A stretch of DNA of 64,000 nt from a phage (GCA_011911785.1 GCA_011911785.1_4084.1), one strand, 5' to 3'. Positions 37,312 through 64,000 are shown, counted from the stretch's first letter. Notes: a model not told the origin generated them from the sequence alone. Made by a program: numbers and translations.

Positions 37312-37314
37312 GTA

Positions 37315-48490: not shown

Positions 48491-48683
48491 TGAAGTAATA
48501 TTACTTATAGAGAATTCAAGTAAATTCTTAAACATATCACTGTCTGATATAGATGAAGATGACAAAGAAGTACTGAGAGCAGATTTAAGAGTACTGTTAC
48601 ATCTCGGAACAAACCTACAAGAGCAATTCGTTGAGGACTACATCGATGAACTTAAAGAATCAGTACTGAGAAGATGCAAATGA
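48468..48683 (+). CDS. F1 family small protein (71 aa)
   Basis: Motif HLGTNLQEQF. Confidence 0.5.
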   Translation: MKILNEGDEVILLIENSSKFLNISLSDIDEDDKEVLRADLRVLLHLGTNLQEQFVEDYIDELKESVLRRCK

Positions 48684-48925: not shown

Positions 48926-49122
48926 ATGGACTGTTTTTGAAGTTATTTGCCATTAACACATCAAAACTACCAGACACGGATAAAATTATTAAGTTAAATG
49001 AAATCTACGTTCAAGCAACTCTAGGAACTAACTATCAAGAAGCCAATGTTTATAATTACATTAATACACTTAAAAGGGTAATACAATTAAAATGCACAGA
49101 CAGCACATACACAAACCCCTAG
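48880..49122 (+). CDS. F1 family small protein (80 aa)
   Basis: Motif TLGTNYQEAN. Confidence 0.5.
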   Translation: MQMRIITGEEYRTIINGLFLKLFAINTSKLPDTDKIIKLNEIYVQATLGTNYQEANVYNYINTLKRVIQLKCTDSTYTNP

Positions 49123-49322
49123 GAACAGCAGAATACCTTGAACTAATGGCAGCAAACTTCTCATCCTTTCAGAAACTGATGCAAGAATCAAATAATGATT
49201 TAGAATATCATATCAAAAGTTCAGATTTAAGATTGTTACTCACTCTAGGAACAGACAGTCAGTACCAATTCGTACAGGAGCATATTAGAGCACTTTTAAA
49301 TGGCATCAGGAATAAACTATGA
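49092..49322 (+). CDS. F1 family small protein (76 aa)
   Basis: Motif TLGTDSQYQF. Confidence 0.5.
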   Translation: MHRQHIHKPLGTAEYLELMAANFSSFQKLMQESNNDLEYHIKSSDLRLLLTLGTDSQYQFVQEHIRALLNGIRNKL

Positions 49323-49534
49323 AGACAATATCTAATCAAGAGTACTTAGAACTATTCAGAAAGAATAATCACAAATTTTTAGTACTTGATACAAGAACTG
49401 ATATAGGGGAACTTGAAAAAAATCTTTTGCGTTCAGAGATGATAGTACTGACACTCTTAGGAACACAGCACCAAGAGAGAACTGTTAATTCACACATAGG
49501 GATTCTTATACAGATAGTACAGGAAAAGATATGA
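49319..49534 (+). CDS. F1 family small protein (71 aa)
   Basis: Motif LLGTQHQERT. Confidence 0.5.
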   Translation: MKTISNQEYLELFRKNNHKFLVLDTRTDIGELEKNLLRSEMIVLTLLGTQHQERTVNSHIGILIQIVQEKI

Positions 49535-49752
49535 GAATCATAACACAACAAGATATTCTTAAGTTCACAAGGGTTCATGCATCTGAATTTGATGCTATAT
49601 TATCAAAAAGTTACAACAACCCTTATACAGAAGATGTACACTACAGTGAATTATGGGTGTATATACTTTTAGATACAAATTATCAAGAGCAAGCAGTACA
49701 GAAGTATTTGACAGCTTTAAGTACTGCTATTGCTAATGGAATAGGTGTTTAA
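49531..49752 (+). CDS. F1 family small protein (73 aa)
   Basis: Motif LLDTNYQEQA. Confidence 0.5.
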   Translation: MRIITQQDILKFTRVHASEFDAILSKSYNNPYTEDVHYSELWVYILLDTNYQEQAVQKYLTALSTAIANGIGV

Positions 49753-49754: not shown

Positions 49755-50096
49755 ATGAAAACTAATATTCAACTTAAGGTTTATAAATCATTTGCAAGTA
49801 CATATATCAAATGCAGTCTATGTAAAGATGTAATGGACTACAAAGGTAAGCCATTCACGATTACTTACGATTCTACAAGAGGTTTTTATATATCTTTTGC
49901 TGATTACAAATATAACATGTACGAACACATTGACATTAAAGATTTAAGTACTTTATCTGAAGAAGAATACTTTCAAGAATCATTAGTATGGGATTTAGAG
50001 TTTCCTATGCCATTGGTACATAAGATGATAGTACTAATAAAAGAAACTAAACAGGAGCCTAATAGTGCTTATGAAGAACACATTATTGAGTACTGA
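49755..50096 (+). CDS. F2 family protein (113 aa)
   Basis: Motif SEEEYFQESLVWD. Confidence 0.5.
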   Translation: MKTNIQLKVYKSFASTYIKCSLCKDVMDYKGKPFTITYDSTRGFYISFADYKYNMYEHIDIKDLSTLSEEEYFQESLVWDLEFPMPLVHKMIVLIKETKQEPNSAYEEHIIEY

Positions 50097-50099
50097 ACC

Positions 50100-50330
50100 A
50101 TGAAAAGATTATCATTCGAAGAGTACTGCAAGCTTATTAATACTTTACAACCACAAATAAAACAAATAAATTCTCTTCCTATATCCCAAGAAGAACGTGC
50201 AGTACTGAAAGATGAGTTAATTTTAAAATGCACAGTAGGTACTAACTATCAAGCTGATAGTGTTCGTTATCTAATTTGGGGTTTAATGTGCATAATAGAG
50301 AACAAAGCAGTTGACAGTACTCTAATGTAG
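50100..50330 (+). CDS. F1 family small protein (76 aa)
   Basis: Motif TVGTNYQADS. Confidence 0.5.
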   Translation: MKRLSFEEYCKLINTLQPQIKQINSLPISQEERAVLKDELILKCTVGTNYQADSVRYLIWGLMCIIENKAVDSTLM

Positions 50331-50378
50331 TGCTATAGTACTTGTACTTTTCGAGCGTTCTAATAGAGGGTACAGATT

Positions 50379-50624
50379 ATGTTAAAATTTTTAAATTTTC
50401 TTATCGTCTTGTGTATTGTTCTTGGGATTGCACCGTTTGTATTAGCGTATCTGGATTCAGATGAAATGCACAAGATGAATTGCACAAAGACAGGACAGAG
50501 TAGAAAAGAGACGGTTATGATGCCCGTAACGGTTATTGTGAATAACATGCCGATTACAAACATGGTCCCTACCCTAACGACAACGTACCAGTACTCTTGC
50601 GATGACGGAGAGAGATGGAGATGA
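50379..50624 (+). CDS. Small protein with N-terminal hydrophobic segment (81 aa)
   Basis: MLKFLNFLIVLCIVLGIAPFVLA. Confidence 0.45.
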   Translation: MLKFLNFLIVLCIVLGIAPFVLAYLDSDEMHKMNCTKTGQSRKETVMMPVTVIVNNMPITNMVPTLTTTYQYSCDDGERWR

Positions 50625-50958
50625 TGCGATAATGCGTAAGATCAATTGTATAAAAAGAGCGAATACATGTTTCATTGCGTTGACCAATGTACCGGGTGGG
50701 TCTGGTGTTAAGATATTTGAGTACAATAAAGTTGATAATTGTTTCTATTGGGTAGAAGGTATCAAATCATATGAAAATACGATAGCAGTACCGAATCTAG
50801 TTGATATCTCTGAAGAAGAAGAGTTTCAGTACATGTTAGTACACGATGATTCTTTTGGGTTGACATACAAAGAGATGAAGGAAGTACAAAGGCAGATGAT
50901 ATCATGTATGAATATTTCTAAGCATTTCCTTCAAAATATTCATCCAATTTACGTATAA
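50602..50958 (+). CDS. F2 family protein (118 aa; start may be 50632)
   Basis: Motif SEEEEFQYMLVHD. Confidence 0.45.
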   Translation: MTERDGDDAIMRKINCIKRANTCFIALTNVPGGSGVKIFEYNKVDNCFYWVEGIKSYENTIAVPNLVDISEEEEFQYMLVHDDSFGLTYKEMKEVQRQMISCMNISKHFLQNIHPIYV

Positions 50959-50967
50959 GAGATTAAT

Positions 50968-51303
50968 ATGAAATTCAACATTCATAGAATTAATTCCGGT
51001 TGTATATTTGCTTATACGCATGAGAATTACAAGAAGTACATGAATCATGAAGTACATTATGTTTTTGAGGACGGTAAAGAATATTTTGCTTATTTGAGTC
51101 CCAGGAGTTTAGGTAAGTACGAGTTGCTTCAGGATCTTTCTCTTATGCAGGAAGATGAATTATTTCAGTACAGTCTAATTCATGACCCTTATATGTTTGA
51201 TATAGATATTATGTGCAGTTTACAGAAGAGGATGAAAGAAGTTTGGGATTCGATTAAAAGAGGTGATTGTATAGAATATGATAGTATACAAGAAGATGCC
51301 TAA
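50968..51303 (+). CDS. F2 family protein (111 aa)
   Basis: Motif QEDELFQYSLIHD. Confidence 0.5.
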   Translation: MKFNIHRINSGCIFAYTHENYKKYMNHEVHYVFEDGKEYFAYLSPRSLGKYELLQDLSLMQEDELFQYSLIHDPYMFDIDIMCSLQKRMKEVWDSIKRGDCIEYDSIQEDA

Positions 51304-51496
51304 CGGATATGAATTGAAGTACAGACAGTTTATTCGAAATGTAGATTCAGATCCTTTTAATGTTAAAATGGCAGAGTTTGATTTATTATTTTATCTAGGA
51401 ACGAGAGCACAGCCACAATTCGTTGATGCATACATAAGGGCTTTACGAACAGAGATAGTATGCACACCAAAGGAGTCTAAATGTACAAAAATGTAA
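51278..51496 (+). CDS. F1 family small protein (72 aa)
   Basis: Motif YLGTRAQPQF. Confidence 0.5.
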   Translation: MIVYKKMPNGYELKYRQFIRNVDSDPFNVKMAEFDLLFYLGTRAQPQFVDAYIRALRTEIVCTPKESKCTKM

Positions 51497-51738
51497 ACCA
51501 TCATTTGTACGCATCGAAGTACAGGGATTTTTGTTTACAAGGGGGCGATGAAGATTTTGCTCTGCGATTATCGGAATTTAATATGTTATTTTATCTTGGT
51601 ACATCAGTACAAGAAGAAATGGTACAGAAATTTATCAAGCACCTTGAGCGAAAAATTCATACGCAAATTTTGGTTGTTAAGTTACAGAATGAGATAAATG
51701 AATACAATGCAGAATCTAACAATAGTACAGGATCTTAG
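51481..51738 (+). CDS. F1 family small protein (85 aa)
   Basis: Motif YLGTSVQEEM. Confidence 0.5.
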   Translation: MYKNVNHHLYASKYRDFCLQGGDEDFALRLSEFNMLFYLGTSVQEEMVQKFIKHLERKIHTQILVVKLQNEINEYNAESNNSTGS

Positions 51739-52099
51739 ACCAGTAATAATGATGTTAAATGCAAGACGAGATTTATGGCACGAAATGCATAACAAGAAGG
51801 ATTCATTTGCACAAATCAATTTAGTCTTTCAGGAGTTAATCCAGAGTGCATTGGGTGTTATCGAACCAAAATACAAAGATGGTATATTCTGTGTAAAGAA
51901 TGCAGTTCGTCCTCATGCAATTCCAAGGAAAATTAAGTTAGCCAGATTAACATTTGACGAGAGGGATTTCTTCAGTTATAATCCCAGTACAGCTTTATAT
52001 TTTATTCCTGATTCAGACAAATATCATCCTATCCATTACGGATGGATTATGTCTTATATAGTAAATGAAACGGAATACCCTATTAAATGGGAAAGATGA
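51698..52099 (+). CDS. Hypothetical protein (133 aa)
   Basis: ORF track; overlaps neighbours. Confidence 0.4.
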   Translation: MNTMQNLTIVQDLRPVIMMLNARRDLWHEMHNKKDSFAQINLVFQELIQSALGVIEPKYKDGIFCVKNAVRPHAIPRKIKLARLTFDERDFFSYNPSTALYFIPDSDKYHPIHYGWIMSYIVNETEYPIKWER

Positions 52100-52275
52100 T
52101 GATAGATACAAAGACATTAAATGCATTACAGGATTCATTATTAGATAGTATTAAGCTGTATTACAATATGCATTTGAGGGGTGGTATCAATGATTACAAT
52201 TATTATTTGAGTGTAATTATATTTGAGCATCTTTCAGTACAGGATAGAATTTTACACAAGTACAAACATTATTGA
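52087..52275 (+). CDS. Hypothetical small protein (62 aa)
   Basis: ORF track; ATG start. Confidence 0.35.
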   Translation: MGKMMIDTKTLNALQDSLLDSIKLYYNMHLRGGINDYNYYLSVIIFEHLSVQDRILHKYKHY

Positions 52276-52286
52276 GGAAACAAAAT

Positions 52287-52646
52287 ATGTTCAATAAAAT
52301 CATGTTCATTTTAACATTTGTGTTTTTATCATTCACAAACACCGCTCATGCAGCACAGGCAGTACAGGCATCATCGGATGTACCGTTATATGAAACATAC
52401 AAATTTGATTGCAGATTACAGAATAATGAAATAATCAATATCTTTTTACACAATACAGAAGTACCTTATTTGCAGATTGAAGCAACGAAGTACATGTATT
52501 ATGGTACGAATTCGGTACAGGAATTTTTATTTAAACACACAGAACAGGATGTAATTATATCATTGCAGTACGTTGATAGTTCATTGTCTTTAATGCATTT
52601 CAAGAATGCAGAGGGATTAGTTACAGTGCTCAAATGCTATAGGTAA
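52287..52646 (+). CDS. Small secreted protein with signal peptide (119 aa)
   Basis: MFNKIMFILTFVFLSFTNTAHA; RBS GAGGA; track TTG start 52272 rejected. Confidence 0.5.
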   Translation: MFNKIMFILTFVFLSFTNTAHAAQAVQASSDVPLYETYKFDCRLQNNEIINIFLHNTEVPYLQIEATKYMYYGTNSVQEFLFKHTEQDVIISLQYVDSSLSLMHFKNAEGLVTVLKCYR

Positions 52647-52652
52647 TAATAT

Positions 52653-53168
52653 ATGAATGAAATTGAATTATTAACGCACAAGATTAGTACAATAATGCTT
52701 ATGCTCAAAAATAATCATCCTATACATAAGTACATTGATATAGATGAATTACGCATAGAAGATAGGCATGGTAAATTATCGTTTATGTTTCACAATGCAA
52801 ATAATGCAGGGAATGTTAACGTTTGTTTTGCAGCATTTACCCAAGCCAATCCAGTACAAACATCTCCTGTTGTATACGAAAATAAAGAAGGGTATTTGTG
52901 GGTAAACACAAACGATTATTTCTTTTATGATTTGAAACAAGATGATGAAGTAGAAGAACGAATTGATTTAATTGATATTAGTACAGATTGTAGTGCTGAA
53001 TTATTTCAGAAATCGTTATTATATAGTCCTCGTCAAATGCATTATCTAAAGTTATTCAGTTCATTGTACGCGAATCCTTTAATTAAGGGTTTTAAATTTT
53101 ATATAAAAGTTCCTGACATTCAAGCAGTTTATGATATTTTGATGCAAGGATATAGTTATGAAGTATAG
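52653..53168 (+). CDS. F2 family protein (171 aa)
   Basis: Motif SAELFQKSLLYS. Confidence 0.5.
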   Translation: MNEIELLTHKISTIMLMLKNNHPIHKYIDIDELRIEDRHGKLSFMFHNANNAGNVNVCFAAFTQANPVQTSPVVYENKEGYLWVNTNDYFFYDLKQDDEVEERIDLIDISTDCSAELFQKSLLYSPRQMHYLKLFSSLYANPLIKGFKFYIKVPDIQAVYDILMQGYSYEV

Positions 53169-53466
53169 AATGCTCTATACCAAAGATATGATTTATGTTG
53201 AATTAGAAGGCGATGAAGACGGTTGGAATTTGATTTATTCATGTAGTTCAGGTTGGTACATGGCACATTTAAATGATAACGAAGTCACAGATTATTTTGT
53301 AGATTTCAATACATTATCCGACGAAGAATTGTTTCAACAGCAATTAGTGATTGACACAGGTGGATATGATGTGTTATTATTAAAAAAGATACAGAAAGCT
53401 GTTATGAATTTTAATGCACATGTATCCGAATGGGAAAGGAAATATTATGACCTCGAAGTACAATAA
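53158..53466 (+). CDS. F2 family protein (102 aa)
   Basis: Motif SDEELFQQQLVID. Confidence 0.5.
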   Translation: MKYRMLYTKDMIYVELEGDEDGWNLIYSCSSGWYMAHLNDNEVTDYFVDFNTLSDEELFQQQLVIDTGGYDVLLLKKIQKAVMNFNAHVSEWERKYYDLEVQ

Positions 53467-53815
53467 TACATTTGATATTAATAAGTTAACAGAATGGTTT
53501 TATAATATTGAAATTGAAGCTATTCCGTATCACAAGTACGAACAACGTGATTTACGTAGTATAGATATTCGTGAGTTGTACGAGTATTATCAGAGTGCAT
53601 TAGAGATGCATAAGATATTTTTGAGTACAGAATACATGACACGTTGTAAGGATGCGTTTGATGAATTCAAGAAGAATGATAATTTAGTACAGAAATATGT
53701 AATAGCAAAGTACATGTACCTTCAGGGAATTACAAGTACAGTGCAATTCAATACAGTTCTTGCTTTAGTTGAGATTATTTTATTATGCAAAAATGTAAAG
53801 TGGAATTTAGTTTAG
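53447..53815 (+). CDS. Hypothetical protein (122 aa)
   Basis: No family motif; track start 53414 rejected. Confidence 0.4.
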   Translation: MTSKYNNTFDINKLTEWFYNIEIEAIPYHKYEQRDLRSIDIRELYEYYQSALEMHKIFLSTEYMTRCKDAFDEFKKNDNLVQKYVIAKYMYLQGITSTVQFNTVLALVEIILLCKNVKWNLV

Positions 53816-54282
53816 AGAGTGCTGTGCAGTACGTTAAGTACATTGAAGGTGTATACAATATAATGAAAGCATATGAAGGAAAAGGATATGCTTCAATAAA
53901 TCACAAATATGATTATATTAACAATCAGTTAGAAGAATCAAATTCAGGTAAAGTGCTTTTTAGTTTTTTATATTTTGCTCCTGACAATGTATATCCTGAT
54001 GAAAATGATCTTCGTCTGGAAAGAGATGACCTTTGGTATATGTATCCAGGACGTGATAAGCCAATGGATGATGCTTTGTTGGAAATCAAATACAGTCCAG
54101 AACCCTTGACACCGGAGTTGTGGTTCCAGTACAGTACAATACATGAAGAAATTGATATCTTTTTCTACGCAATATACAAGATGCTTTATGAGAATGGTGT
54201 GCTTAAGAATCATGTATATTTTTATTTCCAGCAAATGAAAAATGTATATGAGTCCTTTTACCCAACCGAGCCTGTATCGTAA
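53785..54282 (+). CDS. F2 family protein (165 aa)
   Basis: Motif TPELWFQYSTIHEE. Confidence 0.5.
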   Translation: MQKCKVEFSLESAVQYVKYIEGVYNIMKAYEGKGYASINHKYDYINNQLEESNSGKVLFSFLYFAPDNVYPDENDLRLERDDLWYMYPGRDKPMDDALLEIKYSPEPLTPELWFQYSTIHEEIDIFFYAIYKMLYENGVLKNHVYFYFQQMKNVYESFYPTEPVS

Positions 54283-54308
54283 GATATGGGCTTTTTTTCG
54301 TTTTGGTA

Positions 54309-54337
54309 TTGACACAGTACAGAATCGGTGCTAATAT
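54309..54337 (+). promoter_or_regulatory. Sigma70-type promoter TTGACA-17-TAATAT inside the F2 array
   Basis: Preceded by a weak hairpin + T7 run. Confidence 0.5.
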
Positions 54338-54363
54338 ACCTGAACATTTTTAAGGAGAACCCC

Positions 54364-54897
54364 ATGCAAACATCGCAAAAATCGCAAGTACAGAAAGCAA
54401 TGTCATTCAATGAAATTGGTGCATTTAAAGATAAGATTATTGATTGTATTGAATACGCGATTTGTAGTAATATCAAAAGTATAGAGGTATTTAACAAGTC
54501 AAATCGCTCTTACCATATGATGTACATTGCAAACAATAATGGTATCATTCCATTTGTTTCGGATAGTACAATATGGTTCGCTTGCGATGTGAAAAAATAC
54601 ACAATAGGTTCATATGTCTTCGGTAAACATGGTGATCTAATTATTCCTGAGCATTGTATGCAAGAAGAAGAATATTTTCAAAAGCAATGTGTACATGAAC
54701 CATTAGAGATGGTTGCTTTATATATGATACCTTATATCTCTAAATGTGTTCATGAGAATAAAGCTCCGTGGAATCATGAATTTGTATCGTTGAAGTTATT
54801 GTATAATGTTTTAGTACAATATTATGATTACAGACACGAGGGTACAATCAGCGATGTATGGGATTTCGAAAATTTAAGGGTAAAAACATATGAATAA
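54364..54897 (+). CDS. F2 family protein (177 aa)
   Basis: Motif QEEEYFQKQCVHE; RBS AAGGAG; track start 54328 rejected. Confidence 0.5.
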   Translation: MQTSQKSQVQKAMSFNEIGAFKDKIIDCIEYAICSNIKSIEVFNKSNRSYHMMYIANNNGIIPFVSDSTIWFACDVKKYTIGSYVFGKHGDLIIPEHCMQEEEYFQKQCVHEPLEMVALYMIPYISKCVHENKAPWNHEFVSLKLLYNVLVQYYDYRHEGTISDVWDFENLRVKTYE

Positions 54898-55528
54898 TTT
54901 TCCAAGAAATGCTTCACCGTATGAGGTGATGAAGTTCATGGAGCCTCATGTTCCTTATATGTTTGAAATGCTAAAGAAGTTCAATGCTATTTTCCCTGAG
55001 AATTCAAAATTGGAGATTCCATTTGATTCCGCATCCAGATACAGTGCATCCTGTGGTAAATTAGTTTTAGTTATCGGTAGTGACAGAATAGGTTTCAGGG
55101 AAGTATTTGACACGTCATTAGCATTTGGTATATTCGATAACAACAATAACATCACATACATTGACAAGTACATTTGCGACATAGCAGGTTCCTCTAAGCC
55201 GGATTCCTTTGTGGATTCAGTTGCAGATTATGGTGTTTCAAAAGATGGTAATGTAATAAGTACAAAGACGTTCATATCATTATCGTTAGAAGATGACATA
55301 TGTTACATTGCAGGGCAAGAGTACGAGGGTGTAGAGGAAGTGCTTTTTCAAATGTCCTTAGTACAGAAGGATATGGTGGACCCTACCGAAATCCTGAAGT
55401 TGTGCAAATATGCGAATGAGTACAAGAAATTGATTGAACCTGGGTTTAGTTTCAGTGCACAGAGTCCGCATTTTCAGATAAAAGTATATGAAGATTTCAT
55501 TTTGAAGTTAAAAGAGATTGTGTTATAA
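54890..55528 (+). CDS. F2 family protein (212 aa)
   Basis: Motif VEEVLFQMSLVQKD. Confidence 0.5.
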   Translation: MNNFPRNASPYEVMKFMEPHVPYMFEMLKKFNAIFPENSKLEIPFDSASRYSASCGKLVLVIGSDRIGFREVFDTSLAFGIFDNNNNITYIDKYICDIAGSSKPDSFVDSVADYGVSKDGNVISTKTFISLSLEDDICYIAGQEYEGVEEVLFQMSLVQKDMVDPTEILKLCKYANEYKKLIEPGFSFSAQSPHFQIKVYEDFILKLKEIVL

Positions 55529-55580
55529 TACGCAATAACATGCAATAACACACAATACAACAAAGACGGGAGTGATTTAG

Positions 55581-56117
55581 ATGATCCAGCACAAACATTT
55601 TGAGTACGAGTTCGCTGACAATTTAGTAAAAATCGTACAGGCGTTTGAGGCTGGGGATTTTGACCACATCTATCCTAAGCACAAGGAAGGATGGCTTGAG
55701 CCTAAGAGCGATATTGAAAAGTATCCATCTATTGTGTATTACAGGAGAGATACGGTAATGCACGCTGTAGGTGAGAAGATGCAGTTAGAGTATTGTCTTT
55801 TGTTCAATGCTATTACATCGGCTACATCAGCATCTGAAGAGTTCGCTCCAGTGAATTGGATTCGTTATTTGGATATGAGCAAGAGAGAGGAAGAAACCTT
55901 TTTTGGTTTAACAAAGCACGTTGATATTGCAACCTTGAATCCTAACATCCTGAGTCCTGAAGAATATTTTCAGGAGTCCTTAGTACAAGATCCTTATATT
56001 TTACAGGTGCAGCAAGTATATAATGTATTACGTGCTAATGTGAAAACGAATTTCTTTTTAGCTTTAACGTGGTACGATAGGTTAGTAAAAGATCTCAAAG
56101 AGATTAAGGGGGAGTAA
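55581..56117 (+). CDS. F2 family protein (178 aa)
   Basis: Motif SPEEYFQESLVQD. Confidence 0.5.
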   Translation: MIQHKHFEYEFADNLVKIVQAFEAGDFDHIYPKHKEGWLEPKSDIEKYPSIVYYRRDTVMHAVGEKMQLEYCLLFNAITSATSASEEFAPVNWIRYLDMSKREEETFFGLTKHVDIATLNPNILSPEEYFQESLVQDPYILQVQQVYNVLRANVKTNFFLALTWYDRLVKDLKEIKGE

Positions 56118-56683
56118 TGCTGGACCTTCAGGACATAGAAAGTACATGCAAAGCGATAGAAGATGATTTAGAATACATCAAGGGGTTGTATTTAATTGTA
56201 GATAGGATTTACAAAAATCCGAATGCGTTTCAGGAAACGTACCAGCATGATAAATTTCGACACGAACCAATCATTACGCTTATGTCGGATTTATCGATTT
56301 ACGAAAGAAAATCCAACAAATCACATAGTGTATTATTTGTGAGTACAGATAGATTTTACAGTACAACATCAATTTGTTCAGATGTATCATGTGCATGGTT
56401 CAGTTCAAATGAATATATAACAGTTAAAAATAATGGCGAAAATGAGAAATTAAAAGTAAGTGAGCTTATTGATTTGATGCCATATAGTCCTGATGTAGTG
56501 TTTCAGTACAGTACATTGCACGATTATAATTCAATACGATATCGTTATTTTGTTAAGCATTATTATGATACCTTCGGGGAGTTAACGGAGAAGTTAACGT
56601 TGAGATTTGACCGTGATATTGATCTCGTTGCAATGCTTCAGTACATACAGTACGTGTTTGATAAGGACGCGGAAAAGGGGTAA
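56117..56683 (+). CDS. F2 family protein (188 aa)
   Basis: Motif SPDVVFQYSTLHD. Confidence 0.5.
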   Translation: MLDLQDIESTCKAIEDDLEYIKGLYLIVDRIYKNPNAFQETYQHDKFRHEPIITLMSDLSIYERKSNKSHSVLFVSTDRFYSTTSICSDVSCAWFSSNEYITVKNNGENEKLKVSELIDLMPYSPDVVFQYSTLHDYNSIRYRYFVKHYYDTFGELTEKLTLRFDRDIDLVAMLQYIQYVFDKDAEKG

Positions 56684-56895
56684 TTTTAAAATGATAAATA
56701 TAGGCTTGTTTTTGGGGGCGTTTTGGGGGGTCAAAAAAATTTTCGCTGAAAAACATGTTAAGGTATATGTTTAATATAAAATTTTATATTGTGTTTTTCA
56801 GAGTACAGTTCATGTTTCCTTAAACAAAAAATACCCCGCCGCCGAACGTGCTCCTTATATTGTAGTTTACCTTATTAATTATAGTAGAGGTTATT

Positions 56896-57252
56896 ATGAG
56901 CAATGATTTTGCTATTCACAGTTTTTTCTACAAAAAGGTTGAGTTCTATTGTAATCTCGTTAAGGGTGATACCAATCATTCGTTGGACCAATATATTAAG
57001 TACACCTCAAATGGATTTTCTTTTATTGATTACGGTCGAGTGGGTGGTGGTGTTAATGAACCTATGCTGGACTATACAGAAATGGATGAGGCTACACTAT
57101 TTCAGGAATCATTAGTGTTCGATAAGAAATATATTTGTACACTAGATGAAGTTATTGGTATTCAGAATATCATGAAAGAACACTCTGCGAAGTGCATGAT
57201 AGAATTAACTCAAGATAAGCACAAGACTGTTCAGTACCATTTCAATCTTTAG
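56896..57252 (+). CDS. F2 family protein (118 aa)
   Basis: Motif DEATLFQESLVFD. Confidence 0.5.
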   Translation: MSNDFAIHSFFYKKVEFYCNLVKGDTNHSLDQYIKYTSNGFSFIDYGRVGGGVNEPMLDYTEMDEATLFQESLVFDKKYICTLDEVIGIQNIMKEHSAKCMIELTQDKHKTVQYHFNL

Positions 57253-57263
57253 GGGTCTTAACT

Positions 57264-57608
57264 ATGACATACAATGAATACCGTGAAATAGATCTTCTCC
57301 AGAATACATTATATGAAATTGAAGATTTAATGCACGGATGGACAAGTCTTTCTTTCTTTAATGAAATGTTCGAAGAAATAAAAGTAGTACTACAGAAAAA
57401 ACATAATGGTACTAAAATTAAAATAAAGACTTTCACTGGAGAAGTCTGGTGCGGAGAAATTGTGAAATACATTATAACTCGCAATAACGCATCATTCTGT
57501 TTGAATACTGGTCATTACAGAAATCATTTCAACAATAGCAGTACTCAAGTTATTTCCGAGGAAGAATACAATGAGCACTGTAATAAACTTCTTAAGAGTA
57601 GATTCTAA
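57264..57608 (+). CDS. F2-like protein, degenerate motif (114 aa)
   Basis: ISEEEYNEHCNKL in the motif position. Confidence 0.4.
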   Translation: MTYNEYREIDLLQNTLYEIEDLMHGWTSLSFFNEMFEEIKVVLQKKHNGTKIKIKTFTGEVWCGEIVKYIITRNNASFCLNTGHYRNHFNNSSTQVISEEEYNEHCNKLLKSRF

Positions 57609-57934
57609 TGAATACTAAAATATATGTTTCTTCAAGTACAATGGGAAGTGGTTTTACTTATACGTGCTTTTTTACTACATTGAATAAAACACCTATATTG
57701 ATTATTCGTGATTTCAATGAATGTAATATAGAGTACGTATCCAAAACAGATAAGCTTCCTAATTACATCGAATGCGAATACATGGAGAACTATGAAAGTT
57801 TTATATTTCAGGAATCATTAGTATGGGATAAAGAAATCGATTTCTTTATGTACCTTGCATTACAAAAGTACTACAGAGATAACAAGGACCAAATAGTTCG
57901 TTCTTGCATTTATTCTATTAATCTGGAGTACTGA
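57608..57934 (+). CDS. F2 family protein (108 aa)
   Basis: Motif ESFIFQESLVWD. Confidence 0.5.
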   Translation: MNTKIYVSSSTMGSGFTYTCFFTTLNKTPILIIRDFNECNIEYVSKTDKLPNYIECEYMENYESFIFQESLVWDKEIDFFMYLALQKYYRDNKDQIVRSCIYSINLEY

Positions 57935-58104
57935 TGCTTAAAAAAGAACAAATGGAATCATTAATGAATGCAGTTATTCGTCGTTTTGTTAAAGACATTA
58001 GTCATAAAAACTGTATTACAAATGACAGGTACGGTATAGAATTGTATATAGCTAATATTCACATGGCGTACAGAGAATATATTAAGACACGTCACAGGGG
58101 TTGA
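57934..58104 (+). CDS. Small ORF (56 aa), likely 3' remnant of an F2 copy
   Basis: Ends ..KTRHRG + GGTTGAAATGAG junction identical to the end of 58106-58588. Confidence 0.3.
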   Translation: MLKKEQMESLMNAVIRRFVKDISHKNCITNDRYGIELYIANIHMAYREYIKTRHRG

Positions 58105-58105
58105 A

Positions 58106-58588
58106 ATGAGTTTAGAAAGTGCATTGAAAGAAGCAAAGAAGATTCATGAGTACATGAATATGGCAAAAGAAGGTTCAGTTTACGGTATTTTCAAAGACAC
58201 AAGTACTCAATATTATGTCTCTGATAACCTCATTGATAATGACTTCCCAGATACAGAAACGTGCGTACTAGATACCGACCCTAATGATTATGAATGTTTC
58301 ATTGATATGCATAATGAGTACATGGTCTATGTTAATGATGGAGATATTACCATCTACAGTACTGTCCACGATACCGATGACATTATAATTCCGTGTGCAG
58401 TACTGGAAGGTCCGTGGGATAGTGAAGAGTATTACTTCCAACAAAGTACTGTATACAATGAAGAAGAACTTGATTGTATTGTAATTATGTGGTACTTTAA
58501 AAGTATTGGTTCTGAGAACTTCTATTTCGATTACAGATACGTAAAGAAAACTGTAGATAACGGTATTAATAAACTTCACAGGGGTTGA
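58106..58588 (+). CDS. F2 family protein (160 aa), one of a recently duplicated triplet
   Basis: Motif SEEYYFQQSTVYN; N-term MSLESALKEAKKIHEYM. Confidence 0.55.
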   Translation: MSLESALKEAKKIHEYMNMAKEGSVYGIFKDTSTQYYVSDNLIDNDFPDTETCVLDTDPNDYECFIDMHNEYMVYVNDGDITIYSTVHDTDDIIIPCAVLEGPWDSEEYYFQQSTVYNEEELDCIVIMWYFKSIGSENFYFDYRYVKKTVDNGINKLHRG

Positions 58589-58589
58589 A

Positions 58590-59033
58590 ATGAGTTTAGA
58601 AAGAGCACTAGAACTAGCCAACAAAATACATCACTTCCACGATAACATAAAAAGTGGGTTCTATGGTGATAAAGTAAGTGCATTTGGTAATGAGTATTAT
58701 CTATCAGGTATAAAGACATACTCTGCTGATATTTTACTTATGGGTCATGATAAAGACAATACTATACAGTACTCTTCATGTAGTCAATATACTAGTTTTA
58801 TGGTATATATTCCAGGTACTAAGATTACTTTTGACACATCAAATTCACCTGTTGACTTCGGGGTACTTGATGGCCCGTGGGGTACTGAAGAGTATTACTT
58901 CCAACAGAGTCTCATTTTTAACCAAGAAATGCTTGATTCCTTGGTTGTGTTGTGGTACTTTAAGGAATTGAATTTTGAACCATTCTTTCTTGACTGGGGA
59001 GCATGTGAATATTTAAGTACAGGGGATTTGTAA
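58590..59033 (+). CDS. F2 family protein (147 aa), triplet member
   Basis: Motif TEEYYFQQSLIFN. Confidence 0.55.
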   Translation: MSLERALELANKIHHFHDNIKSGFYGDKVSAFGNEYYLSGIKTYSADILLMGHDKDNTIQYSSCSQYTSFMVYIPGTKITFDTSNSPVDFGVLDGPWGTEEYYFQQSLIFNQEMLDSLVVLWYFKELNFEPFFLDWGACEYLSTGDL

Positions 59034-59488
59034 TGTCGTTACAAAGTGCATTGAAAGAAGCAAAGAAGATTCATGAGTACATGATTAAGGTCAAAGGTGG
59101 AGAAATTCCAGGTATCTTCAAAATGTCAGAGACTGAATATTGCACGAAGAATATTGAGGATTTTGATGGTTCTGATACATTAGTACTGCAATGTGATGAT
59201 TATGATCATGATAATTGTGGTTATAACCCTTTGTACTACTTTATCAATTACTACCCAGGGTCAGATATAACCGTATACAACCCTGATTATTATGCTAAAG
59301 ATTTGACAATTCCGTTTTCAGTACTGGATGGTCCGTGGGATAGTGAAGAGTATTACTTTCAGCAAAGTACTGTATATACTGAACATGAACTCGATACTCT
59401 GGTCATTATGTGGTACTTTAAAAGTATAGATTCAACATGTTTCTATATGGATTATGAATACATAGAGACACAGAAATATAAGAGGTAA
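59033..59488 (+). CDS. F2 family protein (151 aa), triplet member
   Basis: Motif SEEYYFQQSTVYT; 5' ~40 nt identical to 58106 gene. Confidence 0.55.
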   Translation: MSLQSALKEAKKIHEYMIKVKGGEIPGIFKMSETEYCTKNIEDFDGSDTLVLQCDDYDHDNCGYNPLYYFINYYPGSDITVYNPDYYAKDLTIPFSVLDGPWDSEEYYFQQSTVYTEHELDTLVIMWYFKSIDSTCFYMDYEYIETQKYKR

Positions 59489-59493
59489 TTGTA

Positions 59494-59940
59494 ATGTTTT
59501 TTTATTATTATGAAGTAAATGATAAGTTGGTTCAGGATATTGTACAAATAATCAAGTACTTCAATGATAATCCTAAAGTATTGGGTAGTGAACTTGAATA
59601 CGAGAAAGGTGGGTGTGTATATTTTACTTTCTGCGGTGGGTGCTCTGATGAGCAATCATTTTTCAATTCTTATTCAAATTACATCTCCTATAATGCACTT
59701 GCAGACGAGTTGATTGTGGTACGTGACAGTAGTGATGACCGTACAGTGTATACCAGAGAGACAATACAAAGTGTAGGTAATGAAGAAGGATACTTTCAAT
59801 TGAGTACAGTACTTAATCATGAAGAACTACATGTATTACGTTTGTTTTATCTTATTAGTACTATGAACTTGAAGCACGATCAGGTATACATTGATTTAGA
59901 TTACTTTGAGTACTTACGTAAGATTAGTTCTAAAAAATAA
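59494..59940 (+). CDS. F2 family protein (148 aa)
   Basis: Motif NEEGYFQLSTVLN. Confidence 0.5.
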   Translation: MFFYYYEVNDKLVQDIVQIIKYFNDNPKVLGSELEYEKGGCVYFTFCGGCSDEQSFFNSYSNYISYNALADELIVVRDSSDDRTVYTRETIQSVGNEEGYFQLSTVLNHEELHVLRLFYLISTMNLKHDQVYIDLDYFEYLRKISSKK

Positions 59941-59950
59941 GTTCATGCTA

Positions 59951-59978
59951 TTGACAAGAGCCTGTACTGTGTTACAAT
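59951..59978 (+). promoter_or_regulatory. Sigma70-type promoter TTGACA-16-TACAAT
   Basis: Read directly. Confidence 0.5.
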
Positions 59979-60012
59979 GCACAGTAATATTAATTCAAAA
60001 GGTGCACATTAA

Positions 60013-60546
60013 ATGATTATTGATGCTTACAATGCTGAGGAAATGCAGGAATTATCTCGTAAAATCAACATTATAGTTCCTTTGCTTAAGGATTGCAGTA
60101 CTGGTTTGATTCCATCACGAGACATTATTAAAGAAGGATACTACCTACAGGCAGTCTATAAGGGTGGTACATTTCATCGTTGTCGTGTATTACGTGATGG
60201 CCTTCCTGCACTTACACTTATTGGTATTGGTATTGCCGTATGCGGCACGAACCGTTTGTACTTGAATGAAAAAAATCAAATCATGAATTTGTTTTATACA
60301 GGAAAAAGTACTGAATTATATTTTGGTATTCAGAACTGGTGGGATACAGTAAAGAGTAGTACTATTGAAATCCCAAAATACAATTACAACACATTTGAAG
60401 AGCAGATGTTTCAATTGTCATGTACAGATGACATGTACATGATTCTACGTCTCTATATGGAGATGCAAATGAACTTCAGAAGTAATTTATACATTGATAC
60501 TTCAACATTTGAATTCGAAGATGTATTCGTTGATGGTATATTATGA
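60013..60546 (+). CDS. F2 family protein (177 aa)
   Basis: Motif FEEQMFQLSCTDD. Confidence 0.5.
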   Translation: MIIDAYNAEEMQELSRKINIIVPLLKDCSTGLIPSRDIIKEGYYLQAVYKGGTFHRCRVLRDGLPALTLIGIGIAVCGTNRLYLNEKNQIMNLFYTGKSTELYFGIQNWWDTVKSSTIEIPKYNYNTFEEQMFQLSCTDDMYMILRLYMEMQMNFRSNLYIDTSTFEFEDVFVDGIL

Positions 60547-60770
60547 AGTATATTCCAAAACACCAGTACTACAGGATGTGTTCTGACATTTACACAAAAT
60601 GGAATACATTTCATCCCCTTTTGAAGAAGAGGCGTCCATATCATGATTACAAGTTGAATCATTTTCTTGGAACTAATTATCAAGAGGTTGTGATGAAAGA
60701 TTACATTTTTAACCTTCAGAAATTAATTCAGAATAAAGTTCAAGGAAAGGGGGAGTCACCGTGGGTATAA
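60543..60770 (+). CDS. F1 family small protein (75 aa)
   Basis: Motif FLGTNYQEVV. Confidence 0.5.
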   Translation: MKYIPKHQYYRMCSDIYTKWNTFHPLLKKRRPYHDYKLNHFLGTNYQEVVMKDYIFNLQKLIQNKVQGKGESPWV

Positions 60771-60967
60771 GACACAGAGACATGCAAGATATTCTTAACC
60801 AATACAGTGCTCAAATGTTCACTGCAATCAGGTCTTCCAATCAAAATGACGTGTCGGAATTACAGTTACTGATGTACATAGGGACACAATACCAGGAGGC
60901 TTCAGTTGAGACGTATATTAAGTACCTATTGGGTATTATAAGGATGAAAAATGGACAATACTTTTGA
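60761..60967 (+). CDS. F1 family small protein (68 aa)
   Basis: Motif YIGTQYQEAS. Confidence 0.5.
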   Translation: MGIRHRDMQDILNQYSAQMFTAIRSSNQNDVSELQLLMYIGTQYQEASVETYIKYLLGIIRMKNGQYF

Positions 60968-61187
60968 ACAAGCACCAGCATCGGATTTTAGTTATGGGTT
61001 TATTATAGATATATTTTCTGGTACTGAAGAATCGGATATACCTCTTTATATCTTTGCTAATATGCGTTATATTTTTCGTATTGCAGAGGACAGTGACAAA
61101 TCTGATATGTCTTTTATGATTAAAAAAATCATATACTTATCGTGCTATGAATATATGAATGAAATGAGCGAACACTATGACCTATGA
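60951..61187 (+). CDS. Hypothetical small protein (78 aa)
   Basis: No family motif. Confidence 0.4.
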   Translation: MDNTFEQAPASDFSYGFIIDIFSGTEESDIPLYIFANMRYIFRIAEDSDKSDMSFMIKKIIYLSCYEYMNEMSEHYDL

Positions 61188-61725
61188 TGAGATAATTTCT
61201 TTTGCAAATAAGTTAAGTACACTAACCAAATTGACGGAAGTAGTACTGCAAGATGAGCGTATACTTTCTAGGAGTGAGCTAATTGTTTCACAACACGATT
61301 ACATGACGTATATGTCTTTCAGATCGTCAGGCCGAACAATTATTAAGTTCGGTTCTGTTCCTGAAACAAATGGAAAATTATCTATGTGCACCCATAACAA
61401 TGGGGAATTGTATGGATTAGTGTACAGAAAAGATTCGACAGTACTGAATACTTTTAATGCAGGTGCGAGTGCAGTTGATGTTACATCATTAAGCGATGTT
61501 GACAAACACATAGATTTACCACACATTGAAATTAATGAAGAAAGTGTTTTTCAGTTAAGTACTTTGTACAATGATATTGAAGTGTTTGGTATTTCTTTAT
61601 GGAATATCCTTCGTTTAAGGGATGATGCTCCTGTATTTGTATATGCAAATTATGAAGACATTGATACTTGTATTGATGAAATGGAGAAATACATTGATCA
61701 ATTTAAACAAAACTTCCACATTTGA
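61177..61725 (+). CDS. F2 family protein (182 aa)
   Basis: Motif NEESVFQLSTLYND. Confidence 0.5.
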   Translation: MTYDEIISFANKLSTLTKLTEVVLQDERILSRSELIVSQHDYMTYMSFRSSGRTIIKFGSVPETNGKLSMCTHNNGELYGLVYRKDSTVLNTFNAGASAVDVTSLSDVDKHIDLPHIEINEESVFQLSTLYNDIEVFGISLWNILRLRDDAPVFVYANYEDIDTCIDEMEKYIDQFKQNFHI

Positions 61726-62284
61726 TATTCACGAGAAAGCTAAGCTACTCATCAGTACTGCTGAATATTATTACGATACAGTACTGAGTCAATCACCTTC
61801 TACATTTCGTGATTTAGTTAAATCATTTAATAAAACACAAAAAGACTGTGAGCTTTCATATAATGGTGTGAACTTTATGTATATTAAACCATATATGTCA
61901 AAGCGTGATTTGATTAAATGCAATGATGATTTCAAGATTGATCGTGATTTAAATCGTTTCTTCTACGATGTAAGAAGCAATCTGTATCAACTTACATTAA
62001 ATTCCAGTACTTCTTTCATTATTGGATTGGGTAAGAATTTAGGCACAGGTACTTCATTTTATAATAAAGGTGCAGTACAAGATGTGGATCTCAATCCAAG
62101 TACTGATGTTGCATTCCAACAGGATTTGATTATGAATGTGGATTCAGCATCAGTATACAGTTCTAATGTTCTGTGTAAGGAATTTCAGAATTCCAAAATT
62201 CTTGAGTTATTGTACATTGCGGATTGCAATATACTGTACAAATTTTGTACTCATCTGAAGGAGATTTATGAAAAAAGAAATTAG
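61676..62284 (+). CDS. F2-like protein (~202 aa; start uncertain, overlaps upstream gene)
   Basis: VAFQQDLIMN in the motif position; first in-frame ATG after track start region. Confidence 0.35.
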   Translation: MKWRNTLINLNKTSTFDIHEKAKLLISTAEYYYDTVLSQSPSTFRDLVKSFNKTQKDCELSYNGVNFMYIKPYMSKRDLIKCNDDFKIDRDLNRFFYDVRSNLYQLTLNSSTSFIIGLGKNLGTGTSFYNKGAVQDVDLNPSTDVAFQQDLIMNVDSASVYSSNVLCKEFQNSKILELLYIADCNILYKFCTHLKEIYEKRN

Positions 62285-62636
62285 AATCCAATTCGGTATG
62301 AGGAAAAAAGAGGTCATTTGTACACTGAATCATGCGGTCGTGGAAAGGTTTGATGCATTACAAAAATTCTCCCATTTTGTTCTTGTACTATATGAAAATG
62401 GGTCTTTTAAAATCTTCACATATGATGATTCAAAAAATTATCGTAATGATTTTGTAAATCTTACAGTACTGTCAGAAGAGGAATTCTTTCAGGAAAGTAC
62501 AGTCTGGGATTTACCAGGAGCACCAATTGAATACGTCCGTGCTACACAGGCAGAAATGATCAAAGCAATGCAGAACTATCCAGAAGATCATATGACTAAG
62601 TTTCCTGAATCTATTCATGTAGAGGTTGAGTACTGA
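62268..62636 (+). CDS. F2 family protein (122 aa)
   Basis: Motif SEEEFFQESTVWD. Confidence 0.5.
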   Translation: MKKEIRIQFGMRKKEVICTLNHAVVERFDALQKFSHFVLVLYENGSFKIFTYDDSKNYRNDFVNLTVLSEEEFFQESTVWDLPGAPIEYVRATQAEMIKAMQNYPEDHMTKFPESIHVEVEY

Positions 62637-62974
62637 TGGATTTAGTAAAAGTTACTATAGCCAAACATCAGTACTATGTAATGATTGAGTTAGGTTATAA
62701 CCACAAGAAAGAACATTTTTATTATCTTACATATGAAAAGAATATGTTCAAGATAATCACTAATAATTTAGCACGAGATGTATTTCATATTTTTGATTAC
62801 AGTGATTATAGTGAAGAAGAGTTATTTCAGGAATCATTAGTATGGGAGTACAATAGAATTGTAGATATTGAAAAGTTATTTAAGTATCAACAACTAATGA
62901 AAGATATAATGAATAACTATCCATGTGAACTACAAAGAGAACTGGAATTTATTGTCCAATACAAAGAGGTTTAA
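62636..62974 (+). CDS. F2 family protein (112 aa)
   Basis: Motif SEEELFQESLVWE. Confidence 0.5.
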   Translation: MDLVKVTIAKHQYYVMIELGYNHKKEHFYYLTYEKNMFKIITNNLARDVFHIFDYSDYSEEELFQESLVWEYNRIVDIEKLFKYQQLMKDIMNNYPCELQRELEFIVQYKEV

Positions 62975-62976
62975 TT

Positions 62977-63513
62977 ATGTTAGATTATGACAGAATAGAG
63001 AAAGATGATTGGGACGGTACTCACCATTTAAAGGTTGACACTTTTGAACACGCTCGCAGTACTGCTCAAGATCTTATGCAAATCCATGAGTTCATTTGTA
63101 ATAACAGAGAGACTTCTATTTGGACAAAATCTGACAGATTTATTGATTCAAGTTATGATTACTTCAGTATTCGTTCAAATCATCTAGATGATGACGGGTA
63201 CAGTGTTGATATGTTCAATATCAACAAATTTAATGACCCTGAATATGATCCAAAATACAGCGGTGGATTTTTAAGTTATTCCCCTAACTATGACAGAATA
63301 AAGTTCTTTTACGTAGATACTGACATTGTTCTTCCATTTATCGAAGAAGAACTTACCGAAGAACTGTTCTTTCAGATGAGTACTGTTGACGACCCGTACA
63401 TAGTTGGTGTACAATTCATGTTCTCTTGGCTTAAACAGAATAACTTCCCTCCTTTTTATGTTGACCTTACTTTTTACGATTTGATTTGGAATTTTGTTCG
63501 TAATCCATCTTGA
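62977..63513 (+). CDS. F2 family protein (178 aa)
   Basis: Motif TEELFFQMSTVDD. Confidence 0.5.
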   Translation: MLDYDRIEKDDWDGTHHLKVDTFEHARSTAQDLMQIHEFICNNRETSIWTKSDRFIDSSYDYFSIRSNHLDDDGYSVDMFNINKFNDPEYDPKYSGGFLSYSPNYDRIKFFYVDTDIVLPFIEEELTEELFFQMSTVDDPYIVGVQFMFSWLKQNNFPPFYVDLTFYDLIWNFVRNPS

Positions 63514-63538
63514 CACCTCCTTCTGTGCATGATATAAT
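63510..63538 (+). promoter_or_regulatory. Sigma70-type promoter TTGACA-17-TATAAT
   Basis: Read directly. Confidence 0.55.
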
Positions 63539-63569
63539 CTTTTTCATCTAATACGAAAAGGATCATATC

Positions 63570-64000
63570 ATGCAATTCAATCCTGAACTCTCATACAGTA
63601 ATGCTATAACTTTTGCAGACAATTTAATTCGCATTCATAACTTTTTAAGAGATGTTGAAACTAATTTTGACGTTACATATGTGGACCCCAAAAGTGGAGA
63701 GATGTTTACCGATACAGTACAGGTATCCAGTATTCTGTCATTTCGTATGCATATGTTATACAGCAAAGTTGAAGCACATAATAATGTAAGAATTCTTGGT
63801 TCGTCATTCTTTGGATTCAATGCGAAAGCGAAAGGTACTCTTCGTTTTTATAAAGAATTTTTGGAGTACGAAGATATAGAATATATAGATCTCATTGATA
63901 TCAATGATGAGTGTGAATACTTTCAGTACTGCACAATCTATTCAGAAGATGTGGTTTTTGCATTAACTGCAATATCTGAATTGCATAAAAAATTACCACC
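63570..64000 (+). CDS. F2 family protein, 3'-truncated by window end
   Basis: Not in ORF track (no stop); hand-translated MQFNPELSY..; motif ECEYFQYCTIYSED; RBS AAAAGGA. Confidence 0.45.
   Translation, partial: MQFNPELSYSNAITFADNLIRIHNFLRDVETNFDVTYVDPKSGEMFTDTVQVSSILSFRMHMLYSKVEAHNNVRILGSSFFGFNAKAKGTLRFYKEFLEYEDIEYIDLIDINDECEYFQYCTIYSEDVVFALTAISELHKKLP

Follow-up and report, generated by a model that had tools for sequence, protein, structure and literature searches.

A multigene family of small proteins with a conserved F-Q signature in Asteriusvirus jumbo phages and their relatives

Organization of the array and its signature motif

The terminal part (49755-64000) of a 64,000-nucleotide phage sequence (GCA_011911785.1_4084.1), here called the window and numbered from its first letter, carries an array of small plus-strand genes whose products form a large paralog family, termed F2, with a common motif around a Phe-Gln pair. 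The window has a G+C content of about 34%, and from about 20.5 kb onward it consists of tightly packed small genes on the plus strand; scans for tRNAs and Rfam families in the window gave no match. F2 is the family at the window end, F1 is a second family interleaved with it, and F3 is an unrelated array that holds the gene at 22198-22869. With the regular expression F-Q-x-[S..]-[LT..], 22 plus-strand open reading frames (ORFs) were found within 49755-63513, and 3-4 unrelated matches occurred among about 280 other ORFs of the window. A hidden Markov model (HMM) made from the 22 members rescored them at E-values from 2e-37 to 2e-10, and the next-best ORFs were 22198-22869 (E 4.8e-4, with the model built without it) and the truncated ORF from 63570 to the end; the remainder had E-values above 0.05. 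The window thus contains 24 F2 genes, namely 22 complete ones, one cut by the window end and one marginal outlier, in agreement with the about 25 genes of a second interleaved paralog family that had been proposed in a sequence-only reading of this DNA. That reading also had the size range right (102-223 amino acids, aa), as well as the position of the motif in the C-terminal third, with the Phe at a median of 0.68 of the protein length, and the divergence of the N-terminal parts, where the mean column identity is 11-15%. The isoelectric point (pI) is 4.2-5.2 in 21 of the 24 members.

A sequence logo of 295 distinct family sequences defines the consensus [ST]-E-E-x-[YLH]-F-Q-x-S-[LT]-[VIL]-[YH]-[DN], in which the Phe is invariant (100%) and the Gln (98%), the Ser (87%) and the two Glu residues (76% and 74%) are conserved. 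In the same set, the residue before the Phe is Tyr in 37%, Leu in 20% and His in 11% of the sequences, the residue after the Gln is variable (Tyr 24%, Leu 16%, Asn 15%, Gln 13%, Glu 9%), and the positions that follow the Ser are mostly occupied by Leu (47%) or Thr (44%), by Val (43%), Ile (25%) or Leu (24%), by Tyr (42%) or His (17%), and by Asp (37%) or Asn (17%). The originally proposed core, E-x-x-Y-F-Q-S, therefore had to be corrected to E-E-x-Y-F-Q-x-S, as the Ser is found two residues past the Gln and the Tyr in only 37% of the sequences. The motif is present in 169 of the 174 relatives retrieved from databases.

All F2 genes of the window lie on the plus strand. The array opens with a short form of 113 aa (49755-50096, SEEEYFQESLVWD, HMM E 1.9e-23), whose predicted signature helix is encoded at about 49956-49994, and continues with short forms of 118 aa (50602-50958, SEEEEFQYMLVHD, E 6.9e-16) and 111 aa (50968-51303, QEDELFQYSLIHD, E 6.1e-20), a long form of 171 aa (52653-53168, CSAELFQKSLLYS, E 5.4e-27) that belongs to phrog_19795 of unknown function, and a short form of 102 aa (53158-53466, SDEELFQQQLVID, E 1.9e-21). 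Then follow long forms of 165 aa (53785-54282, TPELWFQYSTIHE, E 6.4e-31), after which a terminator-like hairpin is found at 54268-54293, of 189 aa when read from a GTG (54328-54897, QEEEYFQKQCVHE, E 1.3e-35), with a promoter-like site at 54309-54337, of 212 aa (54890-55528, VEEVLFQMSLVQK, E 3.1e-17), of 178 aa (55581-56117, SPEEYFQESLVQD, E 1.5e-24) and of 188 aa (56117-56683, SPDVVFQYSTLHD, E 7e-31). The true start of the gene at 54328-54897 is likely the ATG at 54364, and phage A4 is annotated with a shorter product. Short forms of 118 aa (56896-57252, DEATLFQESLVFD, E 6e-22) and 108 aa (57608-57934, YESFIFQESLVWD, E 2.1e-10) precede a trio of closely related long forms of 160 aa (58106-58588, SEEYYFQQSTVYN, E 9e-34), 147 aa (58590-59033, TEEYYFQQSLIFN, E 1.7e-30) and 151 aa (59033-59488, SEEYYFQQSTVYT, E 2e-37), the last of which served as the modeled representative. 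Downstream lie long forms of 148 aa (59494-59940, NEEGYFQLSTVLN, E 1.2e-23), 177 aa (60013-60546, FEEQMFQLSCTDD, E 6e-20; promoter-like site matching 11/12 positions upstream, at 59951-59978) and 182 aa (61177-61725, NEESVFQLSTLYN, E 1.4e-24), a divergent member with a maximal ORF of 220 aa (61622-62284, STDVAFQQDLIMN, E 9.1e-18) whose start equivalent to that in A4 is near 61694, short forms of 122 aa (62268-62636, SEEEFFQESTVWD, E 5.7e-21) and 112 aa (62636-62974, SEEELFQESLVWE, E 5.9e-25), a long form of 178 aa (62977-63513, TEELFFQMSTVDD, E 4e-31), and finally the gene that is cut by the window end (63570-64000, DECEYFQYCTIYS, motif in the HMM hit ECEYFQYCTIYSE), of which 143 aa are seen and which has 165 aa in A4.

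The single stray copy claimed for the F3 region (22198-22869, plus strand, 223 aa, SEEELFMYSTVID / LSEEELFMYSTVID) is detected by the HMM and matches phrog_29152, but its score is marginal and the motif contains F-M instead of F-Q; we regard this protein, which is basic (pI 9.0), as a probable divergent outlier. The intermixing with F1 was confirmed, as F1 genes are found at 50100-50330, 51278-51738 and 60543-60967 between F2 genes, together with a few unrelated small ORFs. Including those at 45178-49752, F1 comprises 26 proteins of 65-87 aa that share the motif L-G-T-N-Y-Q-x3-V-x2-Y-I-x2-L, in which the Thr is invariant and the Gln is conserved to more than 90%. A homology of F1 and F2 was considered and rejected, given an hhalign probability of 0.2%. 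Two ORFs inside the F2 array (50379-50624 and 52272-52646) belong to neither family; the one of 81 aa has a hydrophobic N-terminal segment, the one of 124 aa a signal-peptide-like N-terminus (…FLSFTNTAHAAQA), and Pfam gave no match for either of them.

Occurrence in related phages and predicted fold

By megablast, the region 49755-64000 matches 34 phage records, all of them from jumbo phages of Escherichia or Salmonella that belong to the genus Asteriusvirus, among them 121Q, PBECO4, phAPEC6 and Sharanji. Escherichia phage A4 (ON286972.1) comes closest, with 97% identity over 62% of the region, and the remaining Asteriusvirus records align over only 21-36% with about 85% identity. In A4, where the array extends about 13 kb farther than the position of the window end, as had been expected, the HMM finds 49 members, 47 of them within 30.7-60.9 kb, and F2 thereby accounts for about 8% of the 596 genes annotated in this phage. 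In phAPEC6, 45 members are spread over 29 kb (gp404c-gp466c). When 1.84 billion representative proteins were searched exhaustively with the family profile, 163 clusters were obtained at E <=1e-3, all of 65-229 aa and none fused to another domain. Klebsiella phage RaK2 (Alcyoneusvirus) contains an F2 array from ORF412 to ORF436 at 262-275 kb, with motifs such as TEEGYFQYSTIFD, downstream of which dam, cytidyltransferase, rnlA and pseT lie exactly as they do in A4. With a RaK2 member as the tblastn query, Asteriusvirus members are recovered at 31% identity (E 1e-4). At the RaK2 genome ends, just one marginal F2 member, ORF003, was found. Erwinia phage Kaldavass shows the same synteny and an array with the variant motif EExYFQxLT, and two metagenomic contigs that have no nucleotide match to known phages encode 25 and at least 33 consecutive F2 members. 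F2 thus has the features of a tandem-duplication multigene family, with many homologous, contiguous genes on the same strand at a conserved locus of related genomes. Phages of Escherichia, Salmonella, Klebsiella and Erwinia, as well as uncultured relatives, all keep the array in this one place, which makes it a hallmark of the clade rather than the oddity of one genome.

Two neighbors of F2 genes in these relatives deserve mention. On the metagenomic contig SRR26954460_1203, Dam (PF05869) and a hit to the anti-Gabija family Gad2 (PF26128; L012 18201-20558) come after an array of at least 33 F2 genes, a hint at a neighborhood that holds counter-defense genes. In the middle of the A4 array, a gene for an MCP-type protein of 470 aa was identified (51130-52542; L002 7131-8543), with a Pfam match to MCPsignal at E 4e-37 and with N-terminal hydrophobic segments; a gene with a chemotaxis-signaling domain is unusual for a phage.

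The motif does not map to a known domain in Pfam, NCBIfam, PHROGs or PDB profiles. Among ten members scanned against Pfam, eight matched no family and two gave weak hits under the cut-off; with all 48 members, no Pfam family was matched by more than one of them, and a match of a single member to ArdA (E 0.074) was regarded as noise. NCBIfam gave nothing recurrent for 24 members, and the best E-values with PDB sequence profiles were 0.27-0.47 for the long-form and short-form alignments. In PHROGs, F2 is spread over more than ten phrogs (9317, 12674, 13866, 33775, 19795 and 29152 among them), all annotated as "unknown function". Two existing gene labels found no support. The label "DNA ligase" on A4_348, the ortholog of 55581-56117 (L001 18328-18864), looks like an annotation error, as Pfam found no ligase domain in F2 members. 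The label "amidohydrolase 3" on the neighboring small phAPEC6 gene gp447c has no support from the domain scans, with gp447c itself being outside the Pfam scan.

Both size classes of F2 were modeled with AlphaFold2. The 151-aa long form (59033-59488) gave a mean predicted local distance difference test score (pLDDT) of 78.5 and a predicted template modeling score (pTM) of 0.75, with a pLDDT of 94-97 in the motif block, and its predicted order is an N-terminal helix, six short strands, a short helix, the signature helix (residues 105-111), a helix at 117-131, a strand at 137-140, and a terminal helix. The 113-aa short form (49755-50096; pLDDT 82.8, pTM 0.79) is predicted to have five strands, the signature helix (69-78), a helix at 85-100 and a strand at 106-112; in short forms, a second nearly invariant Gln is found in helix 2. 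The plan common to the two models is a beta-meander followed by the signature helix, a second helix, and a terminal strand, and in both of them the motif belongs to the blocks of highest confidence (pLDDT 90-97). When alignments of disjoint sets, long forms only and short forms only, were compared by hhalign, the probability was 95% (E 2e-8), but the match comprised only 29 columns around the motif. A Foldseek search of the BFVD retrieved exclusively family members, including RaK2 proteins with 12-24% identity and a probability of 0.84-1.0. Those of 124, 140 and 131 aa, with 14-22% identity, are the HMM-positive ORF412, ORF415 and ORF416. At such low identities, the RaK2 hits indicate that divergent copies share the fold in independent predictions, and the modeled copies therefore have one architecture. 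The predicted fold appears to be without a clear match; candidate analogues are the Polo-box domain, with its six-stranded antiparallel sheet plus helix, and the beta-lobe subdomain of RNA polymerase. The motif itself would form a short helix with Ser/Thr as N-cap and two or three Glu residues in the first turn, and with Phe, Leu/Thr and Val/Ile at intervals that suit a packed face. N-cap, acidic first turn and hydrophobic face suggest a helix that is part of the structural scaffold, and not a linear cleavage site.

Promoters, virion status, and selection

The F2 genes mostly abut or overlap, and the few gaps hold putative promoters (at 50311, 54309, 55502, 59951 and 63510) as well as a terminator composed of a hairpin plus a T stretch at 54268. 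Sites that match the sigma-70 consensus in at least 11 of 12 positions are strongly biased to the coding strand: between 20.5 and 64 kb, 31 were found on the plus strand and 4 on the minus strand, with about 1.7 expected per strand, and 16 of the 31 plus-strand sites are perfect (TTGACA-N16/17-TATAAT). Between 45 and 64 kb, the numbers are eight and zero, with 1.2 expected. A perfect consensus promoter (TTGACA-17-TATAAT with TG) is found at 63510-63538 in the gap upstream of the truncated last F2 gene, a near-consensus promoter (11/12, with TG) at 50311-50339 in an intergenic gap of the array, and another (11/12) at 45115-45143, where the F1 array that precedes F2 begins, all on the plus strand. 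As the genes abut and the promoters and the terminator lie in the gaps, the arrangement points to operons that would be read by the host RNA polymerase.

Further upstream, the region 24852-42844 has sixteen perfect sigma-70 promoters on the plus strand, most of them 13-57 nt before one small ORF, and it may thus be a run of one-gene units under host promoters of maximal strength. A stretch of about 1.9 kb (24221-26105) is poor in ORFs (none of at least 64 aa), has consensus promoters at 24852 and 24984, and coincides with a sign flip of the GC skew. No tRNA and no Rfam match was found in this stretch, which may be a regulatory region or a locus of non-coding RNA such as the one described from the PA5oct terminal repeat.

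In phAPEC6, none of the proteins gp404c-gp466c is among the 62 virion proteins that were identified by mass spectrometry (PMC7247149). Other paralogs do occur in these particles: the phAPEC6 "DNA condensation protein" products gp003-010, gp549 and gp551 are virion-associated, and the window encodes, at 11047-19554 on the minus strand, paralogs of 375-436 aa that are annotated as "DNA condensation / regulator of chromosome condensation" in relatives. In PA5oct, a relative that depends on the host RNA polymerase, small uncharacterized genes of the long terminal repeat belong to the early class (PMC7318152), and a like suggestion was made in the CBB paper for the region of RpoD-like promoters of that phage. 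For Sharanji, the genome paper describes a direct terminal repeat of 20.7 kb determined by PhageTerm, which it gives by length and not by coordinates, and the GenBank record opens in the middle of the F2 array (record positions 1-9334 and 347 kb). A link of the array to the genome terminus is therefore no more than suggestive in Asteriusvirus, and parts of the F2 and F1 arrays would lie in the repeat if the Sharanji record starts at the terminus.

The ratio of nonsynonymous to synonymous substitution rates (dN/dS), pooled over the orthologs of the F2 genes in the window, is 0.30 against A4 (3344 codons) and 0.43 against phAPEC6. For 12 of the 22 F2 genes, phAPEC6 has no ortholog at 45% identity or more, and the other ten are 50-94% identical. 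These data show constrained protein-coding genes at a locus with heavy replacement and divergence among congeneric phages. Within the window, the F2 paralogs are mostly less than 30% identical, with the likeness limited to the motif region, and the sole close set is the trio beginning at 58106, 58590 and 59033 (36-53% identity); judged from such divergence, the paralogs of the window are ancient. The region 6465-20499, which was tried as a conserved control for hypervariability, turned out to be a variable paralog family itself and was uninformative.

Possible functions and comparison with known systems

We propose that F2 is an early, cytoplasmic, non-virion multigene family of diversified protein binders that serve host takeover or counter-defense, and we give this reading about even odds (roughly 0.5). 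The array would have arisen by ancient tandem duplication and would have been kept as 25-50 genes upstream of the block of dam, cytidyltransferase, RNA ligase and polynucleotide kinase genes. Each protein would be one compact alpha/beta domain in which a variable beta-meander of five to six strands precedes a conserved C-terminal core of signature helix, second helix and terminal strand, and long forms would add an N-terminal helix. Early transcription by the host sigma-70 RNA polymerase would supply paralogs that act as varied binders of host factors or defense systems, with the binding specificity residing in the hypervariable sheet and the N-terminal surfaces, and closely related phages would come to differ through the gain, loss and replacement of members. 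The most economical role for about 50 variants would be the binding of different host or defense proteins at takeover, and the neighborhood contains genes of counter-defense type, namely those for Dam, RNA ligase and polynucleotide kinase. The analysis itself establishes the family with its motif, copy numbers and synteny, the architecture predicted in common, the enrichment of promoter matches, the purifying selection together with high turnover, and the absence from one published virion proteome; early timing, binding function and counter-defense role are what we infer.

Several points weigh against this proposal. The promoter calls are consensus matches, and weaker matches in total are not above chance. 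A dN/dS below 1 indicates constraint and not an arms race. With 38-48 paralogs, the AlphaFold2 alignments have little depth, the models reach a pLDDT of only 53-76 in their N-terminal halves, and the burial of the Phe and the Gln is deduced from helical periodicity and not from coordinates. The counter-defense role amounts to guilt by association, and the polar residues Glu, Glu, Gln and Ser are conserved beyond what a folding core usually needs, so that they could mark a common binding site. A bolder form of the binder proposal, to which we would assign about half the likelihood, is that F2 represents an undescribed fold family of some 50 diversified inhibitors, each directed against a different host defense or housekeeping protein. 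If so, bacterial viruses would have in this repertoire an equivalent of the multigene families with which poxviruses and African swine fever virus (ASFV) evade immunity, and these jumbo phages without a nucleus would meet diverse host immunity by the breadth of their binders and not by shielding of their DNA.

The conserved polar residues could have another meaning, which is the main rival reading but tentative and slightly less probable than the inhibitor repertoire: the invariant helix may serve all paralogs as the docking surface for a single partner, be it a host protease, a chaperone, RNA polymerase or a phage enzyme, while the variable parts recruit different substrates, in the manner of the F-box and BTB families of large eukaryotic viruses. 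It speaks for such an adaptor or hub that the polar residues are kept across genera (Glu 76%, Glu 74%, Gln 98%, Ser 87%) while the rest drops to 11-15% identity, and that the short forms have the second nearly invariant Gln in helix 2; however, S/T-E-E-E is also an ordinary signature of helix N-termini, and Phe, Leu/Thr and Val/Ile are spaced like a buried face. Doubtful, and clearly behind the adaptor, is a neutral or selfish expansion in which tandem-duplicated filler enlarges the genome for a bigger capsid, an idea put forward for 121Q (Hua et al., 2017, PMC5646251). The high gene turnover within the genus would fit, and F2 would then be a concrete example of the duplication-driven genome growth suggested in that study, but all copies have an intact ORF and the invariant motif, the pooled dN/dS is 0.30-0.43, the paralogs appear ancient and are mostly less than 30% identical, and phages of Escherichia, Klebsiella and Erwinia as well as metagenomic relatives have all retained arrays at this locus.

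A further possibility starts from the resemblance of the motif to the site of the tobacco etch virus (TEV) protease (ENLYFQ/S), which the sequence-only reading had noted as most likely a coincidence: E-E-x-Y-F-Q could be cut by a TEV/3C-like or maturation protease, which would split off the last 40 aa or so as a peptide or activate the proteins. The canonical TEV/NIa site is E-x-x-Y-x-Q with Ser or Gly needed at P1'. Counted with the Gln as P1, F2 shares with the TEV site ENLYFQ/S a Glu at P6 and an aromatic residue at P3, as well as a Phe directly in front of the Gln, and the fit is good for Glu at P6 (76%) and Gln at P1 (98%). It is superficial nonetheless, as Tyr at P3 is a minority (37%), P1' is variable instead of small, and the conserved Ser of the 295 sequences is at P2', two residues after the Gln. 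Moreover, the segment is not predicted to be exposed and extended but lies well packed in the helices 105-111 and 69-78, within the most confident part of both models, and the residues after the putative cut (S, L/T, V/I, Y/H, D/N) show the same degree of conservation as those on its other side, which fits a folded element. We know of no cognate TEV-like protease in these phages, and the proteases annotated in relatives are of the ClpP-like or the T4 gp21-like head maturation type, with only part of the source genome being covered here; phage maturation proteases act in the virion, and F2 proteins were not found in that of phAPEC6. We thus consider processing at this site very improbable and the likeness to be most likely a coincidence, more firmly so than the sequence-only reading had it. 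Just as improbable is a packaging of F2 proteins inside the capsid for injection with the DNA, like the inner-body paralogs of phiKZ-like phages, since, although phAPEC6 has an inner body and other paralogs, the "DNA condensation" proteins, are virion-associated, gp404c-gp466c are absent from its 62 virion proteins and the genes lie behind sigma-70 type promoters in a small-gene region and not among late structural genes.

About one gene in 12 of these 350-kb phages belongs to F2, a family that has no Pfam entry and no name, and as Asteriusvirus phages have been proposed for therapy, the role of 8% of their genes has practical weight. If the F2 proteins are diversified binders, they would constitute a ready collection of small inhibitors directed at bacterial functions or defense systems, they would account for some of the growth of jumbo-phage genomes, and they would offer a tractable case of birth-and-death evolution in viruses.

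Paralog arrays in jumbo phages and multigene families in large viruses are known as such. Hua et al. (2017, PMC5646251) attributed paralog arrays in 121Q and phage G to tandem duplication, with one sentence on 121Q, the only mention that we found, which leaves the family meant unspecified and is repeated in a 2026 review, and Iyer et al. (2021, PMC7824862) described about 35 zinc-ribbon copies in phage G. The 121Q array may be F2 or the neighboring F1, which is an equally good candidate. Neither of the two studies describes the F2 signature, its fold, its distribution or its expression context; the RaK2 paper states that about 10% of the RaK2 products are paralogues and nothing further, and the genome papers on the Asteriusvirus phages Sharanji, fEgEco12, CBB and phAPEC6 do not describe the family. 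What had not been described are thus the F2 family, its signature helix and predicted fold, its size, and its conservation throughout the clade. F2 resembles the arrays of 121Q and phage G in that dozens of small paralogs lie head to tail in one genome, and it differs from them as described, because its members are not "very similar" (mostly less than 30% identity) and lack a recognizable domain such as the zinc ribbon.

A second likeness exists to early takeover modules, that is, the terminal-redundancy module of SPO1, the pre-early region of T5, and the early genes in the direct terminal repeat of PA5oct (PMC7318152), which like F2 are dense sets of small unknown genes with promoters for the host RNA polymerase and non-virion products. 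Such modules lie near a genome terminus, and the likeness of F2 in this respect is suggestive; they consist of unrelated genes, whereas F2 comprises about 50 paralogs, and the early timing of F2 is presumed.

The third comparison is with eukaryotic viruses. The MGF360/505 families of ASFV and the ankyrin, BTB-kelch and Bcl-2-like families of poxviruses have roles in host range and immune evasion. F2 has no sequence or fold relationship to them, its host is a bacterium, and its function is a proposed one, but the general design is the same, as all of these are large, fast-turnover sets of non-structural paralogs that are built on a conserved scaffold and have a terminal location, which for F2 is a suggestive one.

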